Assembly (NCBI GenBank): GCA_010909165.1 | Contig: MU008163.1 | Location: forward strand, 2,046,001 to 2,110,000 | DNA from: Anthoceros angustus | Taxonomy: Eukaryota; Plantae; Anthocerotophyta | Length of the DNA: 64,000 bases | Direction: 5' to 3' | Shown here: piece by piece, positions 5,602 through 58,300 of the stretch | How the letters are laid out: each line of letters opens with the position of its first letter | Position numbering within the stretch: the stretch's first letter is position 1 | The notes under the pieces: model-generated | Database searches by the model: none | What the model was told of the DNA's origin: nothing | What the model saw: only the letters and a program-made list of their open reading frames with translations | Translations under genes and position numbers: made by a program

Positions 5602-8186
5602 CTAGTCAGCCGATTTCATAGTGGCATCCATATCCTTATCTCCCACAACATCAGTGGAATTTAAACGAGGACTCACTTGAGGACTTTGCACAGTTTTCTC
5701 CACATTTTCGAACTTGGAGGTGGCCCACGGGGCAGTGCCCACAGTCGGGCTCCTGACTCTTTCTACCGTAAGAAGGGCAACGCCATCCCGAGCATCATAC
5801 CAGTCATGCCCACATTTCAGACACTCAAACTGATAACGGTCTCCTTTCCCTACTTGAAAGAAGTCCTTCACCCCAACATCCCGCTCATGACAAAACTTGC
5901 AAGTTAAGTCCGTCATTTGCATGGCCTTGGGCTGAACCGGCTCTTTGGAAGAGGTCTGCTCGGCGGATGTTAAGCCCTCCTTGAGCTCGCCGGGAGACAT
6001 GTTCAGCACCGTCGTGGAATCCAGCTCCTTGAGCAGCAGCCTGCGTGCAAGTCTGGTACAGTTTCTCAAATTGAAATCCAGACTCCTCATCTTCAAGTTA
6101 TACTTGTGCACATCAAACCCCAGAGCATCAAACACGCAGTTCTCCAGTGCCGACACCGCTTCCACAGCCGTGGCTGGCCAGGACAGATCCCCTCCCTGCT
6201 TCTCAGCCCCGTTGGCCGTTCTCCCACCTGTTGAATCCCCCCCTGCACTTCCCGAGACCGTGGCATCGGTCCCTCCCTGCTTTCCCCCATGGCCCCCATC
6301 CACAGCACCAGCAGCAGCATCCTGCATCCTCACATCCGGCTGCTCCTCTCCCGCCTCCTTCGACACCTCACTCTCCTTCTCCTTCCCCTTCTCTTCTGCC
6401 ACATCCCCGTTACCCTTCTCCCCAACAGCATCCAAGGGGCCTGCACCACCCCGATCCTCACCCTTGCCTTCGCCCTCAAGCCGTGCACTGGCAGCAAGCT
6501 CTCCCTTCTCCTCCCCCTTACCAGCACCTTCACCATCTTCCACCTTCTCCGCCTCACAAACATACTTCACGCCATGCAAAACCTTCTCCAACCACCTGGT
6601 CCTCCCCACGTTCAACTGCACCTTGCCGTACTTCTCCAAAATCCCGTACGCTTCACTCTGCTGCGGCGTCCTAGGCGTGTCCCTGGAACCCTCCTTCCCG
6701 CCATCTTCCAGTCTCACCTTGCCCGTCCTCTCCCCACTCCCATGATACTCCTGCTGCCGCTCCCCTCTCCCCGCATGCGACTGCTCCAGCTGCCTATCCA
6801 CCCTCAACGACGTCAAATTCCTCCGTTTCTTCGCCTTCAGAGCAGGATCCTCCTTCACCTGCTCCCCGCTAACCTCCGCCTTCACAACCTCATTCGGCAG
6901 ATCCCCCAGCGTCTTCCTGGTATTCTCCATCAGGGCCTCGATCTCCTTCTGCTTCGAATCCTCATAATCTTTATCATTCAGCTTCCACAACCGCTTCTCC
7001 GCCGCATCATACACTCTCCGCACAATATGCCCGGGATGCTTCGACTGCTCCGGCAACTGCTTCCCGGGAGGAATAAAATGCACCACGCACTTATGCATAA
7101 CCGACTCCGCCGGCACATCATCCCGATGGAAGCTGTAGAAAAGCTCCCGCGCATCCACCGACGAGTGGTACCCGCCCACCGCCTTCTCCGCCTCCTCCGG
7201 GCGGTAAAACCACTGGCCACCGACCGTGAGCGAGCCATCCACACTCTGCTTGATCTCCTTGATCATGGCCACATACGGCTTCTGCGTCTTGCTCTCGGGA
7301 GTGACCAGCACCGTGTCCTCCAGCTGGTACTGCGCCATCTTCCGCCTCGAAGGCCCTGTAATGCTTCACCAAGCTCCTTCCCCGCCATCTTCCAGTCTCA
7401 CCTTGCCCGTCCTCTCCCACTCCCATGATACTCCTGCTGCTCCTCTCCCCGCATGCGACTGCTCCAGCTGCCTATCCACCCTCAACGACGTCAAATTCCT
7501 CCGTTTCTTCGCCTTCAGAGCAGGATCCTCCTTCACCTGCTCCCCGCCAACCTCCGCCTTCACAACCTCATTCGGCAGATCCCCAGCGTCTTCCTGGTAT
7601 TCTCCATCAGGGCCTCGATCTCCTTCTGCTTCGAATCCTCATAATCTTTATCATTCAGCTTCCACAACCGCTTCTCCGCCGCATCATACACTCTCCGCAC
7701 AATATGCCCGGGATGCTTCGACTGCTCCGGCAACTGCTTCCCGGGAGGAATAAAATGCACCACGCACTTATGCATAACCGACTCCGCCGGCACATCATCC
7801 CGATGGAAGCTGTAGAAAAGCTCCCGCGCATCCACCGACGAGTGGTACCCGCCCACCGCCTTCTCCGCCTCCTCCGGGCGGTAAAACCACTGGCCACCGA
7901 CCGTGAGCGAGCCATCCACACTCTGCTTGATCTCCTTGATCATGGCCACATACGGCTTCTGCGTCTTGCTCTCGGGAGTGACCAGCACCGTGTCCTCCAG
8001 CTGGTACTCCGCGCCATCTTCCGCCTCGAAGGCCCTGTAATGCTTCACCAAGCTCCTTCCCCGCCCCGACTTCTTGATCACCGGGCCCACCGGCTTGGCC
8101 TCGCCTCCTTCCTCCTCGTCAGAATTCTGGTCATCATCATCCCTCTCCGCATCCAACCCCGACGTGCTCAGCTTCCGCTTCCCCAT
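5602..8186 (-). CDS. AIPP3: BAH + TFIIS-central-like + C-terminal Zn-ribbon protein (AIPP3/BDT1-like), interrupted by a ~680 bp internal tandem duplication
   Basis: BAH domain (YQLEDTVLVTPE...GQWFYRPEEA...RELFYSFHRDDVPAESVMHKCVVHF), TFIIS_M-like segment (KYNLKMRSLDFNLRN), Zn ribbon CKFC...CLKCGHDW. Joining 8186-7981 to 7303-5602 gives a single intronless 1908-nt frame (635 aa). Confidence 0.8.
6691..8066. repeat. Tandem duplication, unit ~680 bp, inside the BAH gene
   Basis: 6691-7374 is repeated at 7375-8066. The junction lies in shared CTCCTTCCC(C)GCC microhomology; copies differ by small indels. Confidence 0.95.
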
Positions 8187-20736: not shown

Positions 20737-21996
20737 ATGGCGAGGGAGACGTACGAGACGCTGCAGGGTGCGAACAAGAGGCTGGCGGATCATGTTGCGC
20801 AGGTGAGCGACGCATTGAGCGCGCAGGATGGAGGAGCGTTGGCGTCTCTCCTGGCGGTGTCGTCCCCGTCGGGAGCGCAGGCAGGCTACCGGGAGGCTGC
20901 GGCGCTGGTGTACGACTCGGCCAAGGATCTGAGCCGGTTTGTGAAGCTGCTGGACAAGCAGCACGCGGCGCTGGGGGACATGCTGGTGCAGCACTTGCGG
21001 TGCGCGCAGCTGTACAAGCAGGGGAGGTTCGTGGAAGCTTACCTGTGCCTGGAGAGGTGCGCCAATTCCTTCTTGCAGGAGTTTCGGAACTGGGAGTCCG
21101 GGTGGGCCATGGAGGCCTTGCATAAGATAGTGTACGAGCTGCGGAGGCTGGCGGGGATGGCAGACCGGGAGATGGCGGCGCAGGGCAAGGTTCCTGATAA
21201 GCTCAATGGAGCTGGCTCCTTTCTGATGAAGGTGTTCGGGGCGCTGGCGGGGAAGGGGCCTAAGAGGGTGGGAGCATTGTATGTCACCTGCCAGCTGTTC
21301 AAGGTGTACTTCAAGCTGGGGACTGTGAATCTGTGCAGGAGTGTGATTCGGAGCATCGAGACCGCCAGGGTGTTTGAATTTGAGGAGTTTCCTGCAAGGG
21401 ATCGGGTTACGTACATGTATTACACAGGAAGGTTGGAGGTGTTCAATGACAACTTTGTGGTGGCAGACCAGAAGCTCATGTACGCTCTGACGCACTGCAA
21501 GCGGATGGACAAGAAGAACATGAGGTTGATATTGAAGTACCTTGTGCCGGTGAAGTTGTCTCTGGGATTGCTTCCCAAGAAGCAATTGTTGCCCAAGTAC
21601 CAGCTGTCGGAGTACACTGACGTGGTGCGTGCTTGCAAGTACGGGGACATCCGGCTGCTTCGCCATGCGCTGCAGGCTCATGAGGATCAGTTCTTGAGGT
21701 CGGGTGTTTACCTGGTTCTGGAGAAGTTGGAGCTTCAGGTGTACCAGAGGCTGATGAAGAAGATTTACATTCTTCAGAAGCAGAAGGAGCCTAACAAGGC
21801 ACACCAAGTGAAAATGGACACCATTGTTAGGGCTCTGAGATGGCGGGACGTGGATATGGATATAGAGGAGGTTGAGTGTATTATGGCTATACTCATCCAC
21901 AGGAACTACATGAAGGGTTACTTCTCCCACAAGAGCAAGGTGGTGGTGTTGAGCAAGGTGGATCCTTTCCCGAATATGAACTCCAGACATGAGTGA
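20737..21996 (+). CDS. EER5: PCI-domain TREX-2 subunit EER5/THP1/PCID2, single exon
   Basis: Continuous ORF with FLQEFRNWESGWAMEAL, KRVGALYVTCQLFKVYFKLGTVNLCRSVIRSIE, VTYMYYTGRLEVFN, YLVPVKLSLG, GYFSHKSKVVVLSKVDPFP. Start placed at ATG 20737 (ORF track starts at an upstream TTG). Confidence 0.93.
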   Translation: MARETYETLQGANKRLADHVAQVSDALSAQDGGALASLLAVSSPSGAQAGYREAAALVYDSAKDLSRFVKLLDKQHAALGDMLVQHLRCAQLYKQGRFVEAYLCLERCANSFLQEFRNWESGWAMEALHKIVYELRRLAGMADREMAAQGKVPDKLNGAGSFLMKVFGALAGKGPKRVGALYVTCQLFKVYFKLGTVNLCRSVIRSIETARVFEFEEFPARDRVTYMYYTGRLEVFNDNFVVADQKLMYALTHCKRMDKKNMRLILKYLVPVKLSLGLLPKKQLLPKYQLSEYTDVVRACKYGDIRLLRHALQAHEDQFLRSGVYLVLEKLELQVYQRLMKKIYILQKQKEPNKAHQVKMDTIVRALRWRDVDMDIEEVECIMAILIHRNYMKGYFSHKSKVVVLSKVDPFPNMNSRHE

Positions 21997-31956: not shown

Positions 31957-34900
31957 CTCCCCGAATTTAAATCCGCTCTCCAACCTCCAAAAAATCCTCT
32001 CCAAGCTCAACAACACTCTGCCGCAAGCCGCGACCAAGCCATCCTGCCCGCAGATCCGCCACACCACAATTCTCCTCTGCAAACGCCGCCACACACTCTA
32101 AGCACAAGAGATTCCACCACATTCCATCTCAGCGAGGAAAATCCAGTGAAGATAGACCCTTCCACTTCATGTAAAACTGCACACTCCGGCAGTTCTCCAG
32201 GAAGGAATCGTCCAAAGCTGCCGGCTTCGTGTTCGTCTCCCTCACCTCTGATGAGCCGGCAGTAGGTACGGGTGTCGAGCCTGCCAGCCGCCAGCCTGCA
32301 GCTGCCGATCTGTGGAGAACCAGGCTGCAAGAATGCCGCGCTCCTCGTGGTTAAATCGTTAGCCCGGCATAGCAGACTGAATTGTGGCACTACACATATA
32401 TATCCTGCCGCGGCGGGCACGGCCCATCTCGGTCTCGGTCTCGTCGCGCTGCTTTGCCGGCTTCGAGACAGGTCAAGGGCCGCCCATACCCGTTTCAACT
32501 TGTACTGAAATTTTACTTTTCCCGGCACTAGTGAAAGGGCCGCCCATACCAGCTCTCCAACTTGTACTGAAATTTTACTTTTCCCGTGCCTGTACTACCC
32601 GCTCGCAACATGCGGGGGGCTCGCTCCAGACCGACTCGGCCTGCCGGAGTGTAGTACACCTTGTAGTACGAGGTCGGCTTCCCGGCTGGTCCACACGTTC
32701 GTACGCGCAATGCCACCATCTCCTGGTGAGATAGGCTTCAGGACGGAACCCTGCCGGATGATGGATGCTCGGACAGTTTCATTGCTCCACTGTTTCTTCT
32801 TCTTCTCAAGCCGCCGATGTTTGGGCCGTGAGGCGCATGGAATTCGGTGCTCGTCGTTGCCAGCTTTCCAACTGCGGTGAAGATCCTGGTTTCAAGCAGT
32901 CTTGACGATCCATGGATCCGATTGTATCGTTGTTGTCTGACAGCTTCATCTTCACACGCATGCACCTCGGGCTCCTTCTGCAGTCTGAGATCCGACACTG
33001 TGTTGTCACGCATTCACAGGCTTCCGAGTTTCAAGGTCCTCATACTCTGATCATCGCAGCGAGATTCTTCCTTGCTTACCTTAGGTGTTGAAGCTGGCCT
33101 TGAGGTTCGGTCGGCAGAGAGTGCGCACCGTGTTGTTACACTGCAGACTCCACCGATCCGCAGCAGAATGAGGCGGTTGAAACTTGATACATCGCCGTGC
33201 CGCGTAGCTGCCAGTGGCCACCACTTGCAAGGCTGAGCGTGGGAATTAGGAATCGATCCAGAGTCTGGACATAGAAGGTGTGATCATCGTGAAATTGATT
33301 GCGGGTAAGCTTTCCGGATTGTCGATTGTTGTGTGTGTTCTCTCGCGTGTCTGTATCGAGATCACGGCGCCACGGGCTGCTACAACTTCACGACGAGGGA
33401 AGATCGCGATATGGCAACACTGATGTCACGTTACCTCTCGCCGTCCTCAACCACAAACAGGCGCGTTCCTGGAGCCCGTGGCATTGCAAGCTTGAGAAAT
33501 GAAAGAACTCCGGCTTGGGGAGGTTGAAAACGTGAGAAAACCTGCAACGATAAGCAGCAAAGAAGAGCACGGGGTGTGTGGTGACTCGGGAATTCGGGGG
33601 ACCACTCCCTGTGCTCTTCTTTGATGGTTATCCTTGATCGGTTGTCTTTGTACTGCAGCCTGTCTCGCCCCGACACAGGTAGATACCTGATTGCTTGAAA
33701 TATAAGAGGATACTTCAATCATTATGAAATTCTACTATAGAAAGTAATTCAGGTTGCGTCTCGCATTCCATTGAAGATATATGCTGGAATCACAAGGCGA
33801 AGATGCCTAGAAGTTTCCAATTTGTAAACTTAAGCTATGCAAGTCTAGGTATGAGACAGCCCATTCGAGAGATTTGAGAACCTAGATGGCAAGAACGCAA
33901 TGCACTATAATAATTTGCAATATGATAACTAAAATTTAATTTTATAACTTTTAATAATCTTCGACTTCACATTCCCTGAACTAGGGATTAGATGTCTTTT
34001 CCAAATGGCCTACATGTCTATCTTTTCTCAAGACCCCAAAAGAAGATAATTGTCCTTATTTTATATATGTATAGTACTACGAGTGTTTTGACCCTTATTT
34101 GAGGAACTTAGCTATCAAGATCATGACATTGATCACTACCACTAATCAAAAGCAAGCACTAGCAGAATTTGAATTTTCTACAACATGGCCTGCGTGAAAA
34201 ATTTGTTGCTTACGTTTTCCTAAAACATGCTTACGTTTTCCTAAAACAAATCAAGGGGAACCTTAATAGTGATTCATTCTTGAGGGTTGCATGAAGTACA
34301 ATTGTTGTAGTGTAGCAAAGACACCTGAGTTGTGCGTGACTAATTAGTAGCTAAGACTAGGAAAAACAAATGATAAAAATATGAGAAGCAATCTCAAATA
34401 CCACGTTTGCTAGCTTACTTGATCCAACTAGTATAGCCATGATGATGTAAATAGTTTTTTTATGTTTGAACTCCTTCCACCAAGAAGCCCCAGGAATATG
34501 CTTACTCCATTTATGTAGCGAAGGGATATACAACGGTTTCCTATATAGGACATTCCGTGATTTACAATCTGCTGCTTGTAAAAAACGCTTTGATTTTGTC
34601 TGTAGTAAACATGATATCAAAAATTAGTGAATAGCTCTTTTAAGTGCTCATGCACCTCGATGGTTTAGAAAAAAACTATAATATTACCACATAGAGTTTT
34701 TTATTTATCTTTTTAATAAAGTTACCACATGCAAGACGAGATAAATATGAAATTGAAGTAAAGAACAAGCATGAATAAGCATAATGGACCACTAACCATT
34801 TTCAAGTTTGGAAGACAATTTACAAAACAACTCTTATTTCCGCAAACCAACCCTCTATTGTTGGCTTATCGAGGGATAACAAAAGTGCATTAAAGACTGC

Positions 34901-35169
34901 AGATTATCTCTATACACAATTCTCTCTTTTGTCAAAGTTTTCTCACACAAAACTCTTTTTAACCTCCCTGTCCAACCCAGCCTCTAGGTTTTCACAGTCC
35001 TTAAAAGTTTTTATAGGTGTCCCAAAGTTTTGGAAAACCTAACCCTATTTGTATTCTACGAGCTCTCGTTTTGATAAGATCAAATGCCCAAAAATTTTGA
35101 AGAACGTAAGCCTCTTTATATTCTATGAGTTTTCTCAAAATGAGAAACTTCCAACCCAATAACCTCTCA

Positions 35170-35460
35170 AGACTTTTCACATGGACCTCTCAAAACTTTC
35201 CATATAGATCTTTCAAGCCGATTCTAGCGCACTTTCATATTGACCTCTCAAAACTTACTATATTGAACTTCCAAGCCGAGTCTAGCGCACTTCCATATTG
35301 GCCTCTCAAAACTTTCTATATTGAACTTCCAAAAGCCGAGTCTAGTGTACTTCCATATTGACCTCTCAAAACTTTCCATGTTGAATTTCGTCTAGTGCAC
35401 TTCCATATAGACCTCTCAAAACTTTTCATATTGAACTTCCAAGCCGAGTCTAGTGCACCA
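35170..35460 (+). repeat. ~58-bp diverged tandem array, ~5 units
   Basis: Recurrent GACCTCTCAAAACTT..ATATTGAACTTCCAAGCCGAGTCTAG..CACTTCCATAT. Confidence 0.85.
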
Positions 35461-35949
35461 CCGCTTCCAAAGGCTCGGATTGGAGCTTGCACATGATAGT
35501 GGACATGACAAAGATCCTAAACTACATTCTAGGCTTGATTGAAGCCGTCAATCTCTTTGTTGTGGATGGTAATAGGCCTCCCAATTCTCTGGTTTCTACT
35601 CAAACCCTGTTTGTTGTGGATGGTAATAGGCCTCCCAATTCTCTGGTTTCTACTCAAACCCTGCCTAACGTGTCACAACATGAATGTTGTTTGTCACCAC
35701 TTCCTCTAGACTCGGCTTGCATTCAAGAAAGTTGGAAATAAGGCAGACCACGTGATTTTGTGTCACGTTGGTTAGTCTAACTAGACCTAGTTATAAATAG
35801 TAGTTAGTTAACTAACAGGCTAGTTGAAAGGACATACCCCTTCGTAAAACCGCTATAAAAGGCCTACCTATGGACCTTTAAATATAACTCTTAATATAGT
35901 TGCTAGAAAGCATGTTCTAGGCAATCGCTTCCGCATGGGATCTCTAACT

Positions 35950-35961
35950 TGGTATCAGAGC
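35950..35961 (+). other. Primer-binding site complementary to the tRNA-iMet 3' end
   Basis: TGGTATCAGAGC immediately after the 5' LTR. Confidence 0.92.
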
Positions 35962-37470
35962 AATGATCCTCCATGGACTTGCTAGCTATTTCTTCCTTGT
36001 TTGTGATAGTAGAGAGGAAAGGAAATAGCATATTAAATTAGATTTGTGCTTTTGTGAGAGTATGAGGGACTCCAATGGTCCCAAATATACGTTTCACAAA
36101 GAAAAAAAAGATAAGAAAATTCACTTCAAAAGATCATTGAGGATTTCTATAATCCAAGATGTGAGTCTTAAGTGTTTGTGATCATTTTCTATACAAAGAA
36201 GCAGGTTCTCGAGAACATGATGGGCTGCAAGGGCTCTAGATTTATGTCTCGTCAATCTAAGTGTTCTTTATTAGAAGCAAATAGTTTAGAATTTGCATAA
36301 GTTAAAAGCAAACAAATCTAGATCGAAAGGTTTGCATTGTTAAAATAGTCTTTTAGGGAGTCTGAAATGCTCGCCTAATCTAGAGTTTTTAACTAGAAAA
36401 TAGAATTTCTAAAAGGAAAAAAAATCTATCTCGGTACTGATCCGTGTATAGAGCGCTTAACTATGAAGTTCTGATGGTATAATATCTACGAGCGACAGTT
36501 CTTCCCTTGCTTATTACCGAAGGTGGACCTACATACCATAAACAGTGTTCAAGTCGCTATCATCTTCGCGCACACAGATCAGAGGCGCCGCTCTCCCGTT
36601 CTCAAAACTTCATGGCCAGGGATGAGCGCTCAGTCGAGGCATTCTCTTCTGATTAGTCTCAGGTCTGTCTGATTCGGGGCTGGGAGGCCCGGATAGAAGA
36701 GTGCAAAATTTTCTGGCTTAAGAACGTGCTAGCCGACAATTTGTGGCTGAATTCACTCCGGGAGGAAAGGCTACTAGGGCGCCCAAGGATGGTGGTGAGA
36801 CTCCTCTATCATAGCGACGAATCGGTCTGGCAATTTCCTACGGCCCCTCGCCCACCGAGGTCTGCACACATGAGGCACGGCGCGCCTGGGCCGAAACGTT
36901 GCCCCCTTGTCGAAACGACAACTTAAGTTGTCGTTTCACCAAGAGGAGGGGAATGGGACGCCCGTTCGTTGGAACGGCATACCCCTCTTTAATTATATTG
37001 CACCCCGTTCTCCTGAATTATTTTTAATTATATTTTTGATCATCTTTATTGTGCATAAAATTATCTTCTGGTGTTTTTATATATGAGGAAAATTTTCAAT
37101 TACTTTTGTGATGTCAAATCATATCAGCCAAGATGATATTTCTTCTTGGATAAATTCTTCCGGTTGACCAAGTATAATTTAGAAGAATTGTGCGCGCTAA
37201 AGGCTGAAACTTTGGGCAACAAAAAAAATATGCAAAACGTCCGTTTGGTTTGTGACAACGCCGTTTCTAGTGAGTAGGTCCAAGTCTACAAGACTAAGAT
37301 TGGGTTGAGGAGCAGCACCAATTTTGCGAGCAGGTCCAAGCCTGCAAGATCAAAGTCATGGTACTTGCAAATTGTTTTTGCTACCCTTTATAAGCGCATT
37401 TTTCTCTAAGTGATCTAGTCGAAGTATCGTAATATTTCGACTGCTCGCTCTTACGTGAAAGCTCTTAAGG

Positions 37471-38415
37471 ATGGATGCTCAACCACCACCAACACCAACA
37501 ATCTTCAACATGATGAACGTCAGCACTAACTTCAAGGAGAAGGATCGCTTCGACGGAACAAAATTCGAAGTATGGTCTCGTCGAATGAAGACTGCTTTGA
37601 ATACTCGGGATCTGCTCCCGATTGTCAAAGGTACCTTCCCCAAGCCGTCCGGTCCCCAGTCCACTGTCGACACCTGGGTACAGCAGGACAGACAGGCTAT
37701 GCATATGCTAATCTCCGGATTAGACAAGGTTACCTTACACCATACTGATGATGCCATAACCTCTGCTGAAGGTTGGAAGCAACTCATAGATATCTATCAA
37801 TCTACTCATATGATGACTCTTGTTACGGTATGATTGGAGTCTTACTCATTACGGATGCAACCTAACGACAATGTTGCGTAGCACATAAGCAAGTTTAAGT
37901 ATCTACGCGCTCAGCTTGCAGCACTTGGAACGGTAATCTCCGAATTTGATGCTACGGTCCAACTCTTAGCTAGCCTCCCGGCTAGTTATCAAACCTTTGT
38001 CTCGTCCCAGAATCAGACGGTGAGAAATGGTTACCAAGCTGTTAGGTCGGGCCAGGTCCCGAATATTACTGTGTCAGATATTGCTGGAGCTCTCCTGCAA
38101 GAGGAATCTGCCAGGTTCAATGCTGGCACATCTCAACACGGGGGAGAAAGGATTATGTTCGTGACTAAGGGAAGGTCACATCAGAATAAGAACAAGAGTT
38201 TTCTAGGATCTCGAAAGCCTAACTCTTTGCCATCATCTTCTTCCAAGACCCCTAAGCATGAGGGGAACTGTAATTGGTGCCAGATACTAGGCCACTGGGA
38301 GAGAGAGTGCCGGAAGAAATTGGCTGGTGAGGCGCGTCAGGAGCCAAGGACGGGGAATATGTTCGTCGTTTCCAGGCCCAAGACTCGACAAGATCAGCTT
38401 GACCTCTTGCTCTAA
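37471..38415 (+). pseudogene. Copia-type gag, interrupted by in-frame stops
   Basis: RFDGTKFEVWSRRMKTAL, W..QDRQAMHMLISGL, AVQLLASLPASYQTFV-like segment, CX2CX4HX4C knuckle CNWCQILGHWEREC; in-frame TGA and TAG inside. Confidence 0.88.
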
Positions 38416-39699
38416 TTGTGTGTTTGGTGGATTATGCATACAGGACTTTGTGGCTGATCGCCCTTGTGGCCTTAGCGCATACCTATATCCACAAATACAT
38501 GTTAACAATTCAGCGAAAGATATCATCATCGTCGCAACATCTTCAAAGGATGGCCCAATCTGAGGCAGACCGTAGCATGGCAATGCTCTACTCACCCTTC
38601 TTTGTTTCCAGATGCTAGTTGCACTGCTTCTGCCTTGGCTTCTTCACCTCAAGCGGTTCCTATACTCACTGTTCGTGCTTGAGAGGGGGAAGATGAATAA
38701 GCGATGATGAGGCATGCCAATGAACTTGTCATTGGGATCATAATGTTTTGGACGTTGGTGCAGTACTCGGCGTACCTAAAGTACCTTCTGGACAAAGTTC
38801 TGAACTTGGAGTTTAACGTACAAGTCGTCTTCACTACCTCTAACTCAATGCAGATTATCTCTTTCGCTCAAAGTATTGCTGCTGTAGAGGGAGTTGCGTG
38901 AATGCTACCTTTAAGAGGCAAGCTCTATGCCTGAAGCAGCTTAGTGCAGTTGTCAACAATTGATGAAGAATATGGTTACTTAGCCTTCACAAGGAAGTGA
39001 CCAGAGACTGTAGTAGCTATGTGGTGCTATGCAGCTTGCTCATTTGGTAGGACCTTCACGAAGTTTGTTCCATCACTCGAGATGCAAGACTGCTGCCGAA
39101 GGTTTGATTCTTTTCGAAGTCACAACCGGTGTACTTCTCCTTGAGTTCCTGTGTGGCATCACAGACTCAATGCGCAGAGTACGACTGGGAGCTGAGACGA
39201 CCGAATTGAATATGCCTAAAGCAAAGCCCCTTGTGATAGTGGTGATCTCTTTTTGTTATATGGAGCTTTCAAGACACAGCAATCCGCACGTGTCTGAGAG
39301 GGAGAGTTGGAAATAAGGCAGACCACGTGATTCTGTGTCACGTTGGTTAGTCTAACTAGACCTAGTTATAAATAGTAGTTAGTTAACTAAGAGGCTAGTT
39401 GAAAGGACACACCCCTTTGTAAAACCGCTATAAAAGGCCTACCTATGAACCCTTAAATATAACTCTTAATATAGTTGCTAGAAAGCATGTTCTAGGCAAT
39501 CGCTTCTGCATGGCATCTCTAACTAAGAACGTCGGAATAGGACATGTTAAGAGTTTGTTCGGACACAAAATCCATCTCAAGGCATGCGGCATGGAACTTA
39601 GCAGTGGAGGTGCAGACATTGAGGAGATTCAGGCACAAGCAAAGGCCGAAGCACAGGCGCAAGCAAGAGAGGAACTAGCAACTGCTTGGCAAGGGCTTG

Positions 39700-39806
39700 T
39701 TCATTATCGTTGAATGGCAACGGGCCTATTCATTATCGTTGGATGGCAACGGGCCTATTCATTATCGTTGGATGGCAACGGGTCTATTCATTATCGTTGG
39801 ATGGCA
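39700..39806 (+). repeat. 29-bp tandem repeat x~3.5
   Basis: TTCATTATCGTTGGATGGCAACGGGCCTA units. Confidence 0.9.
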
Positions 39807-42800
39807 ATATGCTCGTTTTCACTGGACAAGAGCGCATTTAAAAACGAAAATTTGAAAATTTGAGTTGATAAGAATAGCAAAGTAACAATATAGAAAAAAT
39901 TAAATATGCCATAATATCATCTCCTTTTCCACTTTAACAGCTAGTGAACACCTGATTCATCATGTAGCAGAATTCTTTTTTTGCTTGCATTAGCCTAAAA
40001 ATAGACGAAAGAGAGGCAATTTGCAGCTCATTCCATAAGTTATATGATGTTCAAGTGATGTAGTGTTCCAAAGAAACCTGGATTAAAAGGGATTTAGTTG
40101 ATTAAATATTAAAAAATAAAAAGATAAAAATTATGAGCCATCTCAAATACAATACTTACTTGCTCCAAGTAGCACAACCATGACAATGTAGATAGCTCTT
40201 TTGTGTTTGAGTTTCTCCCTCCAAGAAATCTTAGAATTCTTAATGCGTTCCTTAATGCGTTCCTTCGGAACACAGAATGCTTTCCTAAAAGGCTGCTTCC
40301 GTAATTTACCATCCGCTGCTTGCGTAAAACGCTTTGATGTCGTCTACAGTGAAATACCATAAAAAGTTTAGTGAATAAAATTATCAAGTGCATAGAAACT
40401 ATGTTCATGGTACATGATGCCCTTCATTCAAAAGCTATGACAAAACCACATGGAGTATGAGATAAGTACAAAAGCCAAGTGAGAACCAAGCATCAATACT
40501 CTAAATGAAACACTTAACCATTTTTTGAGCTCGGAAGATAGTATGCAGCACAATTGTCAAAAACTGACTTGAGTATTACATCTCCTTAGAGAAGTCCAGA
40601 ATAAGTGAATAAACAGTATCAGGTTCCCTTCATATATAGGCTGCTCATCTTAATCTTTCTCGCTCATTGTTTAATTTTTTACAAAATAAAATTATTATTA
40701 TTAATAATTTAAAATAACTTATAACAAAACGTCATAAGAACGGTAAGTTGCTTGAGGGTAGACAATGGAGGTCTAGTCCCGTTCGGCCTGGGCCCTCCAC
40801 AGAGGCTTGCTCCCTATTCACCCTGTGGAGATGGACTTCCCACCTCTTGAAAGAAGAAGAAGAATTTTATAAAGTCTCCACGTTCTCGCTTAACAAAAAA
40901 CAATATCTGTATGTAATAAATAAAGTGACATCTACGTACATATATGAAATGAAGACATGACATCCCGGCCGGCCGGCCGTCGTGGCCGGTGGAAAAAAGC
41001 TCCCGGATTGGAGCGGGCGCATCTTGCACGGTGCAGCGGGCGGGCGATTGTAACACACTGCCTACCCTGGAAAGGGATGCTGAAGGGGTAGCAGCCCTAG
41101 CCTTGAGGGGCTCAGAGCTAGACAGGGCAGCAGAGGCGAGCATGGCGCTGCCGGGTGATCTGGCCGGCACTGTGTCGATCTCGCTAACCTATCTGGGCGT
41201 CGCCATGTGCGGCAGCTGCTTCAGTATGCGAGAACGCGGTGGCGAGCATCAAGCTGATGGAATCATTCTGGATCAGCGTGGAAGGGGAGGAGCGCGTGTT
41301 GGTTCTGTTGCGGGGCCTGGCCTCGGGATCATCTCGCCTGCATGTGGACGCGTGTGAGGGGTTTTGAGACGCAGGGGCTTGATGTACTCTTTATCAGTCT
41401 CGGAATAGGGCACAGCATGGGAGCTGGAAGGCAGGGATGTGTTTCTTGAGAGAAGACGATAGGTTAAACGCTTCGCTTTGTGAGAGAGCGGGTAGTAGGC
41501 GGTGGCATCAATGAGAACTGTTTGTGTGAGAACTGAAGGTAGTGGAAGGGATCATCGGGACCGAGGACTGGAAAAGCTCCCCTTGTGTGGGGAGACACAT
41601 GCAGGTTTTCTCATCTGCAAAAAGGACACCTCATCAAGATTTGATGAGGTCTTCATGAGGCGTCTCTTTGCAAATGAGAAAAGCTAGACAGGCAGATTTG
41701 ATCTCTGACTACCAACTCGCTTTACGATGCTAGTGTCTGAATCCAATGGCCCTCGGCCTCCTCCTGGTGAAGTTTTAGATTTTTGTGGTAAGTTTTGGTT
41801 TTTCTGTAGAAGGGAGGGACAAGTTTGCCGGAGACCATGTGCAATGTAGATGCATCAAGACATCATGCATGTAATCAACCGCACAGGAAGATACCCTGAC
41901 CTGTCTGCGCTCTAACATGGATGCGATTATGGATCATTGCAGGGGTGGGAGAGCAAAGGAATGCGGCCCCTAGCCCTGTGAGAAGCTTGGATGGAGCGGT
42001 TCAGTTGGCTAGTAACCCGGCCCCGAAAGCGTGCAAATCTGGATTTCACAGGACCATCCGCGGATAGGAGCACCCCTGTTGCATGATTCATCCATGTGTT
42101 CCAAAATTTTGTTGCTGAAAGATCAAATGGACAAACGATTCAACTTTACAAGGTGCAATACCAAAGAGGATCTCAAGGAGGACGAGGAGCAGCGTGGGTT
42201 CGGCAAGAGTGCACCCAGGCTCAGTGGCCAGCTCCATATCCAGCTTGCAATGAGAAAGCAAAACCATCGTCGAAACCACTGGAGCCCGTGTCTGTCGTGA
42301 TTAGCCAGGCAGGCTTGAGGAACGTGAGCCGCATTCCAAGGTTAAGCCTTCTGGTGTTCTTTGCACAGCAGGTCGGGGCAGGGTTTCAGGAGTTCGATCT
42401 TGCGACGTCTGGTTCGTTGTGACCAAGCGGAAACAATTGATCAAATATCGAACCACCCGCAATGGCAGGCCAGGGTAGATCTTCATTGGCCTCTCGAGAA
42501 TGAGGTGTTGCAGGTTGCTTGCTTCAGGGAAGAGCCGTTTCACACGGTGACCTCTGCAGCCTCTCCAAGAGGCATAGCATGAAGCAGGTGGGTCGAAACA
42601 GAGAGGAGAGCAAGTTGCAGCTTACCGGCCCTAAGATCTGCCAGACAACCGCCGCCCAAAGGATTCATGGACGACCCAATGACGGAATTGACCTCCAGGC
42701 ATCTCCTCCAGTGAGATCTGCAGCAGCAGCCATGTTAGCAAGTTAGCCACAGGGCATGGTATCCCAAGCCCAAGGAGATGCTGGAGCTTCGACTTGCTCC

Positions 42801-53037: not shown

Positions 53038-55340
53038 ACATGGAGACTTAATGATATATGCGGAGATGCGAAGTGCGATTGGGAACAACCCTGAAGCTAT
53101 CTACCGCCCGCCCTAGATGCCCTAAGAATACGGAAGGGTTTACTTACCACTGAAGCTGAAGATGCTACAGTCTCCCACATTCAAAAAAACCCCAAGAACA
53201 AAGAAGGGCTTACTTACCATTGAAGCTGAAATGCTAAGTCTCCCACAATCAAAATAATCTTGAAGGGCCTACCACCCCCTAGATGCCCCAAGAATCGGAA
53301 AGGGCCTACTTCCCACCAAAGTTGAAGTTGCTTGTATTCAAAGTCTGTCCTCAAAATAACATTTGCCAACGCTATGTGCCGAGCGATGGAAACAATCGCC
53401 AAAAGAAAGGGACCACGCAAGATAGGGGATACCAACCCCAATTCTTACGGAAAAATATGTTGAGGGCGAGCTCAAAGCTGAAGTTGCTTGTGTCTCTTGC
53501 CAACGCACTCCGCGGAGCGATGGAAACAGGTTGCCGAAAGAAAGGGACCACACAAGATAGGGGGAGACCAACCCCATTCTTACGGATAAATATGGTGAAG
53601 AGCACATCCTCAACATATTTATCCGTCCTGAGCAAGTGTATGTGATATTGCTAATCTGGCTCAAGCACAAGGAGCCCCTCCGTCTGGACCCGTAGTGGAT
53701 TAGAGTGTACAGTGTTGCGGTGAAGAACTTTGACAGTGTGGCGTGCCAACCAGAGCAAAAAAGGCAGGAACTTTTGGAGGCACTACGACATAGTGATAGG
53801 CATAGTGTCTTCCATAAGGCTTTGCACCAGCAATGTTTTAGAAGGTGTACGCAACTCCTATTGCATGTAATGTTGGCAACTCCAGCTTGCCAGCGACATA
53901 TTTCAGCAAAAGCGCAACCAAAGTGCGGCACAAAACATAATTGCGAGGCATGATTACTGCGTGTACATTCACCACCGTGATGCGGGAAGAGTATGATTAC
54001 CCGTGACGTCCGGTGCTTTGAGTCCAAGAAACAGGTGACTCCGAGGCGCGCTTTTTTCCTAAACCATGGCGTGGAGATGATGTGACCCTAACCTCTCTAG
54101 CCAACAAAGACGAAGATGAGGATGCGGTTGGAGACCAGGACAACGAGGGGTTTGGCGATGGCCATGAGGACGGGGAACATATCTAGGCCCCGATGATGAA
54201 GACATGGAGACTTAATGATATATGCGGAGATGCGAAGTGCGATTGGGAACAACCCTGAAGCTATCTACCGCCCGCCCTAGATGCCCTAAGAATACGGAAG
54301 GGTTTACTTACCACTGAAGCTGAAGATGCTACAGTCTCCCACATTCAAAAACCCCAAGAACAAAGAAGGGCTTACTTACCATTGAAGCTGAAATGCTAAG
54401 TCTCCCACAATCAAAATAATCTTGAAGGGCCTACCACCCCTAGATGCCCCAAGAATCGGAAAGGGCCTACTTCCCACCAAAGTTGAAGTTGCTTGTATTT
54501 GTCATCCTCAAAATAACATTTGCCAACGCTATGTGCGAGCGATGGAAACAATCGCCAAAAGAAAGGGACCACGCAAGATAGGGATACCAACCCCAATTCT
54601 TACGGAAAAATATGTTGAGGGCGAGCTCAAAGCTGAAGTTGCTTGTGTCTCTTGCGCTCCCAGGCGATGGAAACAAAGTTGCGAAAGAAAGGGACCACAC
54701 AAGATAGGGGAGACCAACCCCATTCTTACGGATAAATATGGTGAAGAGCACATCCTCAACATATTTATCCGTCTGGCAAGTGTATGTGATATTGCTAACT
54801 GCTCAAGCACAAGGAGCCTCCTAAATGCGGACCCGTAGTGGATTAGAGTGTCGGTGTTGCGGTGAAGAACTTTGATGTGGCGTGCCAGCAGAGCAAAAAA
54901 GGCAGGAACTTTTGGAGGCACTACGACATAGTGATAGGCATAGTGTCTTCCATAAGGCTTTGCACCAGCAATGTTTTAGAAGGTGTCATAACTCCTATTG
55001 CATGTAATGTTGGCAACTCCAGCTTGCGACAGCTACTATCGAAGCAAAAGCGCAACCAAGTGCGGCACAAAACATAATTCTGCGAGGCATGATTCTGCGT
55101 GTACATTCTGAGCCCGGCTGGAAGTAGTTAGGACACGGGCGTCCGGTGCTTTGAGTCCAAGAAACAGGTGACTCCGAGGCGCGCTTTTTTCCTAAACCAT
55201 GGCGTGGAGATGATGTGACCCTAACCTCTCTAGCCAACAAAGACGAAGATGAGGATGCGGTTGGAGACCAGGACAACGAGGGGTTTGGCGATGGCCATGA
55301 GGACGGGGGAACATATCTAGGCCCCGATGATGAAGACATG
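53038..55340. repeat. Tandem duplication, unit ~1.17 kb
   Basis: ACATGGAGACTTAATGATATATGCGG starts at ~53038 and again at ~54203; junction microhomology ACATGGA; copies differ by many indels. Confidence 0.93.
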
Positions 55341-58300
55341 GAAGAGGACAATGGGGCAGAGGAGGATGCAATAGAGCGGGGATTCGGGTATGTCCATGGC
55401 ACTCGCAAGGTTGAAGCCATCTCGCCAGTTGCAGATAGGGCCTCGAGGAATAAGAGGAAAAGGATTGAGAGTGCTCTCCATCCGGCGTGGAGATGGCCTT
55501 GTGGGAAGGGTAGCAAGTTTGCACGAAGCATCCGATGGATGATGACAGGCTGGCGATGACCAAAGCTGAGGTTGGGCGAGATGTTGCGAGGGAAGCAATT
55601 GCAGCAAAGAGTGGGAGTCCACGTTAAAGGCATCCATCGGTTGTAGACCACCGGAAGAACTTTGTCGATTCGGCAAGGTCCGGAAGCTAGACCTGGCTTG
55701 GGTGGAGGCTTTGATGCAAAAGATGAAGCATTCCACATGGGTGGCTGGTGTGCTGCCAATGATTGTCATCGTGGACCCGGCCCAGTGCCCCAACAAGAAC
55801 TCCTTTGACATGGATAGGGTGGATCATGGGGTCTACAAATTTTATATGTTGGGAGGGAATCATTCCTTCCAGGCCAGATCTAGATTGTTGGACTTGTATC
55901 CATTGGTTCAAGAGCACAGATGGATGGATGCATATGTTCTTGCTGGCCTCACACATGAGAAGATGAGGTTAGTTGCCACTGATCACAACACCATTGCGGA
56001 TGCTAGGAAGACTTTTACTTTCATCGACCGTGTGAGGTACATCAGAACCGAGATGAAGGCCAGGCTAGCGGATGGGCTGAAGTGTGACTTAGACTGGAAG
56101 TTGGAGATATATTCCCCGTTGGGCAGGGTACCTAAGTGGGATGCGGTTGGAGACCGGACAACGAGGGGTTTGGCGATGGCCATGAGGACGGGGGAACATA
56201 TCTAGGCCCCGATGATGAAGACATGGAAGAGGACAATGGGGCAGAGGAGGATGCAATAGAGCGGGGATTCGGGTATGTCCATGGCACTCGCAAGGTTGAA
56301 GCCATCTCGCCAGTTGCAGATAGGGCCTCGAGGAATAAGAGGAAAAGGATTGAGAGTGCTCTCCATCCGCGTGGGAGATGGCCTTGTGGGAAGGGTAGCA
56401 AGTTTGCACGAAGCATCCGATGGATGATGACAGGCTGGCGATGACCAAAGCTGAGGTTGGGCGAGATGTTGCGAGGGAAGCAATTGCAGCAAAGAGAGTC
56501 TGGGAGTCCACGTTAAAGCTGTCCATCAGCAGTTGTAGACCACCGGAAGAACTTTGTCAGTTCGGCAAGGTCCGGAAGCTAGACCTGGCTTGGGTGGAGG
56601 CTTTGATGCAAAAGATGAAGCATTCCACATGGGTGGCTGGTGTGCTGCCAATGATTGTCATCGTGGACCCGGCCCAGTGCCCCAACAAGAACTCCTTTGA
56701 CATGGATAGGGTGGATCATGGGGTCTACAAATTTTATATGTTGGGAGGGAATCATTCCTTCCAGGCCAGATCTAGATTGTTGGACTTGTATCCATTGGTT
56801 CAAGAGCACAGATGGATGGATGCATATGTTCTTGCTGGCCTCACACATGAGAAGATGAGGTTAGTTGCCACTGATCACAACACCATTGCGGATGCTAGGA
56901 AGACTTTTACTTTCATCGACCGTGAGGTACATCGAACGAGATGAAGGCCAAAGGATGGGTCAAGTGTGACTTAGACTGGAAGTTGGAGATATATTCCCCG
57001 TTGGGCAGGGTACCTAAGTGGGATGCAGCCAAGCATGGACCTAAGCTCAGTTATCACCGCCTCGTGGACAATAGGACTCTAGATTATTCTGTTGCTAAGG
57101 TGGATGATGGGGTGTGGAAGTACGTGGATGAAATCTTTGAGAAGTGGGAGACGAAACAATTGCCTAAACAGGTGGAAGCAGCTCGAGCTCTCACAGCCAA
57201 ACAGTTGAAGTCCCGCAGGAATTCAAGGAAGACAGCAGCAGCCGTTAGAGCAAACTTGGTCATTGACACAAAGGAGCTTAGTATAACGGTGAGAGTATGG
57301 AAGTATTACCAGGGCATCGAATAGTCTGCAGCAAGGAAACAACAACTTGAAGACAACATGCATGAAAGTCATGGCTGGAGAATTGACATTGAAACAAATG
57401 TTCGTCTGGGTGGACAAGGCCAAAAAACTCAACCTCATCCATGTTACACTAGCCAAGCATTTGCACTGTGAGATATTTAAAGAGGTTCAGGAACGATATC
57501 TAGATTATTGCATAGTGAATCAGATTAGTAACTTCCAGCCTGCTTTCAAAAAATCTGGTCAGTGGTCGACGAACACATAGCTATTCCCAAATCAGAGTTG
57601 ATGTCTTGTGGTGCTTCTTGTTCTTTCCTCATGCACAATGGATGCCTTAACACCGGACATTCTAACAGTAGAACGTCCGGTAGTACTTGACTAGTGTGTG
57701 GTGCCTTCCATGTCTGCAGCGTGCTAACACTTGCCTTGAATGGGGTGCCCTACCTGAGGCCTTCAAGGAGCACATATTCAAGGCCAGGGGTTGGAAGCAA
57801 ATGGAGGAGTCGCAACGTGCCTTGATGTCAACCACATTTGAGGCTAAGCTGACGACCATCATGAACGACTCCAAGCCTGACAAATCCAGCAACTGGGATA
57901 TTGTGTGGCAACATATTGAACATGGCCGGGTTTGTGGAGCCTCGACCGTATGCTCTGCTCTTGTTGGACCTCCCTAGAGGCTTGGATCTAGATCCCCAAT
58001 CAAGTGAATATGACACAAGATTTACCAAGCCAGAGTTTGAAGGGGTCATCATGCAGTTCAAAGGCATCACCACATCCTAGATATTTCGTATAGTGATATT
58101 TCATTCTCCGGATGACACCTTAATGAGAGAAGTATTAATGGAGGCATGCAGGGGTGCTGTGACGACATGTTACTGGCATAAAACCAATGTCATGGCATTT
58201 TTAGAAGACAAGTTGTATGATGTAGGTGACTTTTTCACTTGTGCCGCTAGCAGCTTGGATAAGGACTGTGTGCCTCAGCCATTTGTACTGAGAGAAACCA

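Follow-up and report, generated by a model that had tools for sequence, protein, structure and literature searches.

A gag-only Copia LTR retrotransposon with AG..CT termini in the genome of the hornwort Anthoceros angustus

General features of the locus

The window analysed here, a stretch of 64,000 nucleotides of the Anthoceros angustus genome (GenBank assembly GCA_010909165.1, contig MU008163.1, positions 2,046,001 to 2,110,000 of the forward strand, numbered from its first letter), contains an LTR retrotransposon that displays two direct LTRs, a primer binding site (PBS) and a polypurine tract (PPT), as well as a target site duplication (TSD) (Table 1). Its interior of 3,355 bp is comprised of a 1.5-kb leader, a gag region, and a further 0.9 kb having no match in Pfam. 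The gag is of the Ty1/Copia type, with Retrotran_gag_2 scoring 100 bits against a cut-off of 27 when the stops are read as X, and its top relatives bear Copia pol domains. No Pfam family was found in the six frames of the 3' interior, and six gag or gag-pol relatives compared with the whole window matched it only over 37510-38445. The intact gag-pol of an autonomous element is consequently lacking, as gag carries two stops and no pol was detected, and the gag-pol of Gypsy type that characterizes errantiviruses such as Zam is likewise absent, the gag being Copia-type. In relatives of the gag, P0137 for example, rve precedes RVT_2, whereas in the element itself no pol was detected. The element is a dead, non-autonomous, gag-only Copia LTR retrotransposon, similar to the gag-only non-autonomous LTR elements that were named TR-GAG (PMC13570524), in which gag is kept and pol is absent.

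Table 1. Features of the retrotransposon and its target site, in window coordinates
Feature	Position	Strand	Basis
Left TSD, AAGAA	35725..35729	.	Boundary comparison
5' LTR, 220 bp, AGTT...AACT, with two TATA-like words (35792, 35854)	35730..35949	+	
PBS TGGTATCAGAGC, without spacer	35950..35961	+	
Long non-coding leader with GC-rich island	35962..37470	+	No Pfam family above cut-off (six frames), no Rfam match here
Copia-type gag pseudogene (DUF4219, Retrotran_gag_2, CCHC knuckle), in-frame stops at 37831 and 37879	37471..38415	+	Retrotran_gag_2 E 1.1e-28
3' interior without detectable protease, integrase, RT or RNase H	38416..39295	+	0 Pfam families in six frames
PPT GAGAGGGAG, adjoining the 3' LTR	39296..39304	+	
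3' LTR, 220 bp, AGTT...AACT	39305..39524	+	
Right TSD, AAGAA	39525..39529	.	Boundary comparison

Several repeats surround the insertion. An old direct repeat of about 600 bp (34228-34830 and 39982-40553), whose core is 68% identical, flanks the element and may be a decayed duplication or a host element. Short tandem arrays with units of about 58, 54 and 29 bp are located at 35165-35458, 35553-35660 and 39693-39807, respectively. Part of the 58-bp unit, 14 bp long, is found again in inverted orientation at 35706-35719, immediately to the left of the TSD. Elsewhere in the window, head-to-tail duplications of 0.7-1.2 kb with 94-98% identity (6691-8065, 53038-55342 and 55253-57026), some of them running through coding sequence, are either recent tandem duplications or assembly artefacts. 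The window also encodes, on the forward strand at 20740-21990, a single-exon PCI-domain gene (PCID2/THP1, EER5 relatives). Its identity to homologues from mosses, liverworts, lycophytes, ferns and gymnosperms is similar throughout, at 64-71%, and served to assign the host to the land plants.

Boundaries and termini

The two LTRs align without gaps over their full length and differ at eight positions (96.4% identity), none of which lies at a terminus. Both copies start with AGTTGGAAAT and end with CTCTAACT, and the homology between them breaks immediately outside these limits (...CAAGAA versus ...GGGAG on the left, TGGT... versus AAGAA... on the right), exactly as claimed in a preliminary description of this DNA, which had the LTRs begin at AGTTGG and end at CTAACT. 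Both LTRs therefore display the terminal dinucleotides AG..CT, and not the TG..CA of a canonical element; the terminal inverted repeat matches at four of four positions and extends to eight of ten.

The 5-bp TSD is perfect and falls within the 4-6 bp range of LTR elements. When 81 boundary pairs within ±4 bases were each tried for duplications of 4, 5 and 6 bp, three were positive. One is the 5-bp AAGAA found where the homology stops; the other two are 4-bp sub-registers, each of which requires a base at which the two LTRs differ. A chance 5-bp match at limits fixed beforehand has a probability of 0.13-0.18%. The PBS, which we take to be of the initiator tRNA-Met type, follows the 5' LTR with zero spacer, and the purine run of the PPT adjoins the 3' LTR. 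Because the first two LTR bases, AG, are also purines and extend this run, the PPT by itself leaves the 5' limit unset, and this limit is set by homology and TSD. The earlier statement that PBS, PPT and TSD independently fix the boundaries thus needs a caveat as to the PPT, which alone is insufficient at the 5' end; PBS and TSD agree with the homology limits.

An artefact, in the form of mis-set boundaries, assembly error, or post-insertion mutation or gene conversion of a TG..CA element, could be argued for from the A-rich composition of the TSD and from the fact that the terminal bases are known from assembled contigs and not from individual reads. Against this, homology limits, PBS and TSD are concordant, other registers break the LTR homology, and an assembly error is unlikely to have occurred in matching form at each of the four termini. 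The eight internal differences that the LTRs retain indicate that they were not homogenised, and the substitution estimates given in the next section weigh in the same direction. We consider an artefactual origin of the AG..CT ends very improbable.

Age of the insertion and origin of its ends

The divergence between the LTRs (K2P 0.0375) corresponds very roughly to an insertion age of 1.4-7.5 million years, depending on the rate, for which values between 2.5e-9 and 1.3e-8 were assumed, not measured. Four matched transversions after insertion would have a probability of about 1e-9 to 1e-11, and the two 5' substitutions alone one of 4e-5 to 5e-6. Four matched changes, at about 1e-9 or less, are implausible, and the cDNA was therefore likely joined through CT-3' at both ends, in agreement with the earlier proposal that the insertion took place with CT-3' on both strands.

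During reverse transcription of LTR elements, the 3' LTR of the parent provides the first base of both LTRs, and its 5' LTR provides their last base. Since these copying rules place a change in both LTRs, each end change need have arisen only once. The general consensus of LTR ends is TGTTRNR...YNYAACA, and those of Ty1 read TGTTGGAATA (PMC3601003). Apart from the outermost base, the ends of the hornwort element match this consensus and resemble those of Ty1; as they fit once the outermost base is swapped back, they are probably derived from a canonical end.

Other copies of the family

The search of sequencing runs listed no RNA run with matching words. One DNA run (X1), available as contigs only and matching at 0.22 of the words, allowed 45 contigs to be placed; a second run (X2) yielded none. 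The LTRs have a summed depth several times higher than the interior, and the contigs are not identical to each other. Both features suggest a multi-copy family, without translating into a copy number. The contigs are divergent over both LTR and interior, and among those listed none spans the element and none shows the 5' end of another copy. A diverged LTR gives rise to a loose end at 35766, its 30 letters stopping short of the LTR terminus. The left flank of the insertion is also covered in X1, and the right flank has no cover; among the rows listed there was no joint.

At the PBS side, one contig (depth 9.55) has other letters than the window at positions 35937 and 35939. It seems to extend as far as 35957, where the depths 14.9 and 9.55 together match the 24.4 recorded, and no difference is listed for it at 35948-35949. 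It lends indirect backing to the CT at the PBS side, and may represent an allele of the same insertion.

The leader contains a GC-rich island (36461-36990) with 53% GC, compared to 34-36% on either side, and a 22-bp hairpin at 36903-36946, and has no match in Pfam or Rfam. The single match returned by Rfam, at chance level (E 0.51), falls outside the leader. One X1 contig is identical to the island over 36692-36846, while most other contigs of the interior differ from the window. An organellar origin was considered, and the depth of the island in X1 is similar to that of the rest of the interior. The island is possibly a captured fragment.

CT-ended loci in metagenomes

Metagenomes were scanned for the CTAACT|PBS junction, which returned 50 loci in 17 rough groups. 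None of them matches the hornwort element at the DNA level, and they are therefore analogues, not family members. The 5' end cannot be fixed for most of these loci. Two distinct insertions show both LTRs, one with TG..CT (L011, L036) and one with TA..CT ends (L013, L021, L038; read by eye), the latter accompanied by a TGCAA duplication. In another group (L016), homology begins at TGTTGG in all four comparisons that aligned. A CT at the PBS side is thus common, and usually paired with a 5' T. One group (L003) was considered as a case of an AG start and not counted: the break lies at an AG 1164 bp upstream in one alignment but at 942 bp in another member, and a second LTR could not be detected. 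In viral contigs, the PBS-junction and LTR-start patterns gave 0 matches each; in prokaryote genomes, the LTR-start pattern gave 0 matches and the PBS junction three among bacterial ORFs, which look like chance.

One unrelated CT-ended family differs in the base that precedes GTTG at the 5' LTR start, which is T at L001 and A at L005, L006, L012 and L015, and single T/A switches can therefore occur. This observation bears on a further explanation, namely that the 5' A of the hornwort element is a one-off, brought about by a single T-to-A change in one parent of a TG..CT family and copied to this insertion only, or, as a variant, by loss of the T together with a shifted RNase H cut that left a purine of the PPT at the end. 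A single change in the parent's 3' LTR would put A in both LTRs, and the PPT does run directly into AG. However, neither the 3' LTR nor a TSD is in view at the four A-bearing loci, where the A may be a later mutation, and the first T, described as invariable in angiosperm surveys (10.1101/137141, PMC9804982), implies that one-off successes must be rare there. The mechanism also overlaps that of the explanation we prefer (see below), the sole difference being the extent to which the A has spread; as an account of its own we regard the one-off origin as improbable.

Relatives of gag and the integrase loop

A full HMMER search with gag gave 150 hits, among them long relatives that had been missed by word-index searches; in viral contigs, no gag match was confirmed. 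Among 20 proteins that were looked up, the best-ranked named relative was from the hornwort Nothoceros, and the zinc-knuckle motif of gag is common to six proteins, that of Nothoceros included. Taken with the PCI-domain gene, this relative makes a hornwort host likely on sequence grounds. In a FastTree phylogeny of 109 sequences, comprised of the query and the 108 of the 150 hits that cover the region, gag falls in a clade of seven with a local support of 0.996.

One member of this clade, P0126, is the one with an integrase domain in hand; it is a fragment, about 32% identical over gag. In this nearest integrase-bearing gag relative, the integrase loop and helix (residues 529-552) depart strongly from the usual Copia pattern: the catalytic helix reads SSSMNGVAEIRHQM, whereas a pattern search of the 150 hits found the usual T/S-P-x-Q-N-G-x-x-E-R-x-N/M-R in 10 of 12 catalytic helices. 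The matching loop of foamy-virus integrase touches the DNA end (PMC6784120, PMC3395085): residues Pro214-Gly218 are stacked against the terminal adenine of the viral DNA (PMC6784120).

These observations can be read as traces of a lineage-wide switch, in which a hornwort Copia lineage, autonomous members included, carries AG..CT throughout the family and its integrase co-evolved, with an end-binding loop rebuilt as in P0126, to prefer a terminal T. The perfect symmetry of the ends, the placement of gag and P0126 in one clade, and the contact of the corresponding foamy-virus loop with the terminal adenine all fit such a scenario. Yet P0126, whose link to AG..CT ends would be conjectural, is one fragment with about 32% identity over gag. 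The integrase of Ty1, a TG..CA enzyme, is likewise without the proline in question, and the P0126 loop is absent from the decayed integrases that follow CT|PBS junctions in four groups of metagenome loci. In addition, elements with different ends, TG..CA included, share clades in lotus (PMC9804982). On balance, a lineage-wide switch seems rather unlikely.

The decayed integrases do share with P0126 a histidine located three residues after the catalytic glutamate, which is a normal feature of the Ale lineage. As a mark of altered end specificity the P0126 loop was rejected, being absent from integrases behind CT|PBS junctions and, as to its missing proline, shared by Ty1; it may be taken as a lead, not as evidence of altered specificity. 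The preliminary description had called for an integrase with altered end specificity; this goes beyond the evidence, as no partner was identified and the odd loop of the nearest relative is non-diagnostic.

A proposed origin of the AG..CT insertion

The explanation that we favour, and hold to be fairly probable, is that the gag-only Copia element descends from a parent that likely had both end changes already, and was inserted in trans by a Copia integrase tolerating CT-3'. The evidence on both termini comes from one full copy. Under this proposal, ancestral TGTTGG...CTAACA ends would have become AGTTGG...CTAACT by two successive changes, with TG..CT, a common state, as the probable intermediate; this order is suggested by the abundance of TG..CT, and the second step would have restored the perfect 4-bp inverted repeat. 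Since the PBS follows the LTR without a spacer, the cDNA probably had blunt ends like that of Ty1. Its joining would have taken place through the terminal T of each strand, at a target cut with a 5-bp stagger, the integrase presumably being supplied by a Copia partner that tolerates CT-3'.

In Ty1, it is blunt cDNA that is joined, with a stagger of 5 bp, and specificity is relaxed in vitro; in vivo in yeast, a CA to AC change abolished integrase-type insertion of Ty1, so that the terminal dinucleotide matters (PMC2939329). Tolerance of CT can therefore not be assumed for every Copia integrase. A CT-tolerant integrase is sufficient to account for the observed ends. Of the autonomous partner implied in the preliminary description, what is retained is the likely supply of integrase in trans; an altered specificity is unneeded.

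Elements of this kind would be dropped or mis-trimmed by programs that accept only TG..CA, or the seven T-first motifs of LTR_retriever, so that counts of Copia elements in seed-free plants may be too low. With its clean AG..CT insertion, this land plant provides a counter-example to an invariable first T, which suggests that CT-3' at both ends is usable by integrases. If AG..CT proved to be family-wide and tied to a changed integrase loop, the family would offer a natural pair for testing the conservation of CA ends; if the lineage-wide switch were true, land plants would provide a further instance of a change that errantiviruses of insects underwent independently. The weight of the finding is limited by its resting on one dead copy, and by the occurrence of AG..CT-type ends in other groups of elements.

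Comparison with known non-canonical LTR ends

LTR_retriever described seven non-canonical motifs in 42 of 50 plant genomes, with the first T called invariable (10.1101/137141), and in lotus eight Copia motifs plus TAGA, all of them T-first, were reported, TG..CT being the most abundant non-canonical Copia end with 6,203 copies (PMC9804982). The hornwort element resembles these angiosperm non-TGCA Copia elements by its Copia affiliation, its short LTRs (220 bp, compared to means of 272-316 bp), the CT-3' at the PBS side and the 5-bp TSD (10.1101/137141, PMC9804982). Unlike them, it starts with A, and its ends form again a perfect inverted repeat, whereas the angiosperm motifs given in these sources are T-first.

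A 5' A is known from Copia/Ale and TRIM families with AA..CA ends in pear and relatives. These Rosaceae families share with the hornwort element short LTRs (201-266 bp) and, for some members, a non-autonomous nature; they keep however the CA at the right end, are non-palindromic and have 6-bp TSDs (PMC5659011). In diatoms, TG/CA is missing in three of 26 families of the CoDi Copia elements, which are similar to the hornwort element in being Copia with, for some, no TG/CA, and different in being autonomous (PMC2806351). The TR-GAG elements have LTRs, PBS, PPT and gag without pol, as found here (PMC13570524), while the hornwort gag is broken by two stops.

In the literature searched, which included few subscription papers, no report of AG..CT in plant Copia was found. 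The preliminary description considered AG..CT unusual, a view that is in line with the T-first motifs of the plant surveys and has to be tempered by the common CT-3', by the 5' A in pear and by the AGT..ACT ends of errantiviruses. In plant Copia, AG..CT is an uncommon but modest variant. A parallel in the ends themselves is offered by Drosophila errantiviruses, which have AGT..ACT/ATT ends, and of which the Zam clade (AGTTA...TAAYT) displays the same swap of the outermost base pair (PMC5408687, PMC3601003). These elements belong to the Gypsy superfamily and reside in insects; because the hornwort element has a Copia gag, the likeness is convergent.
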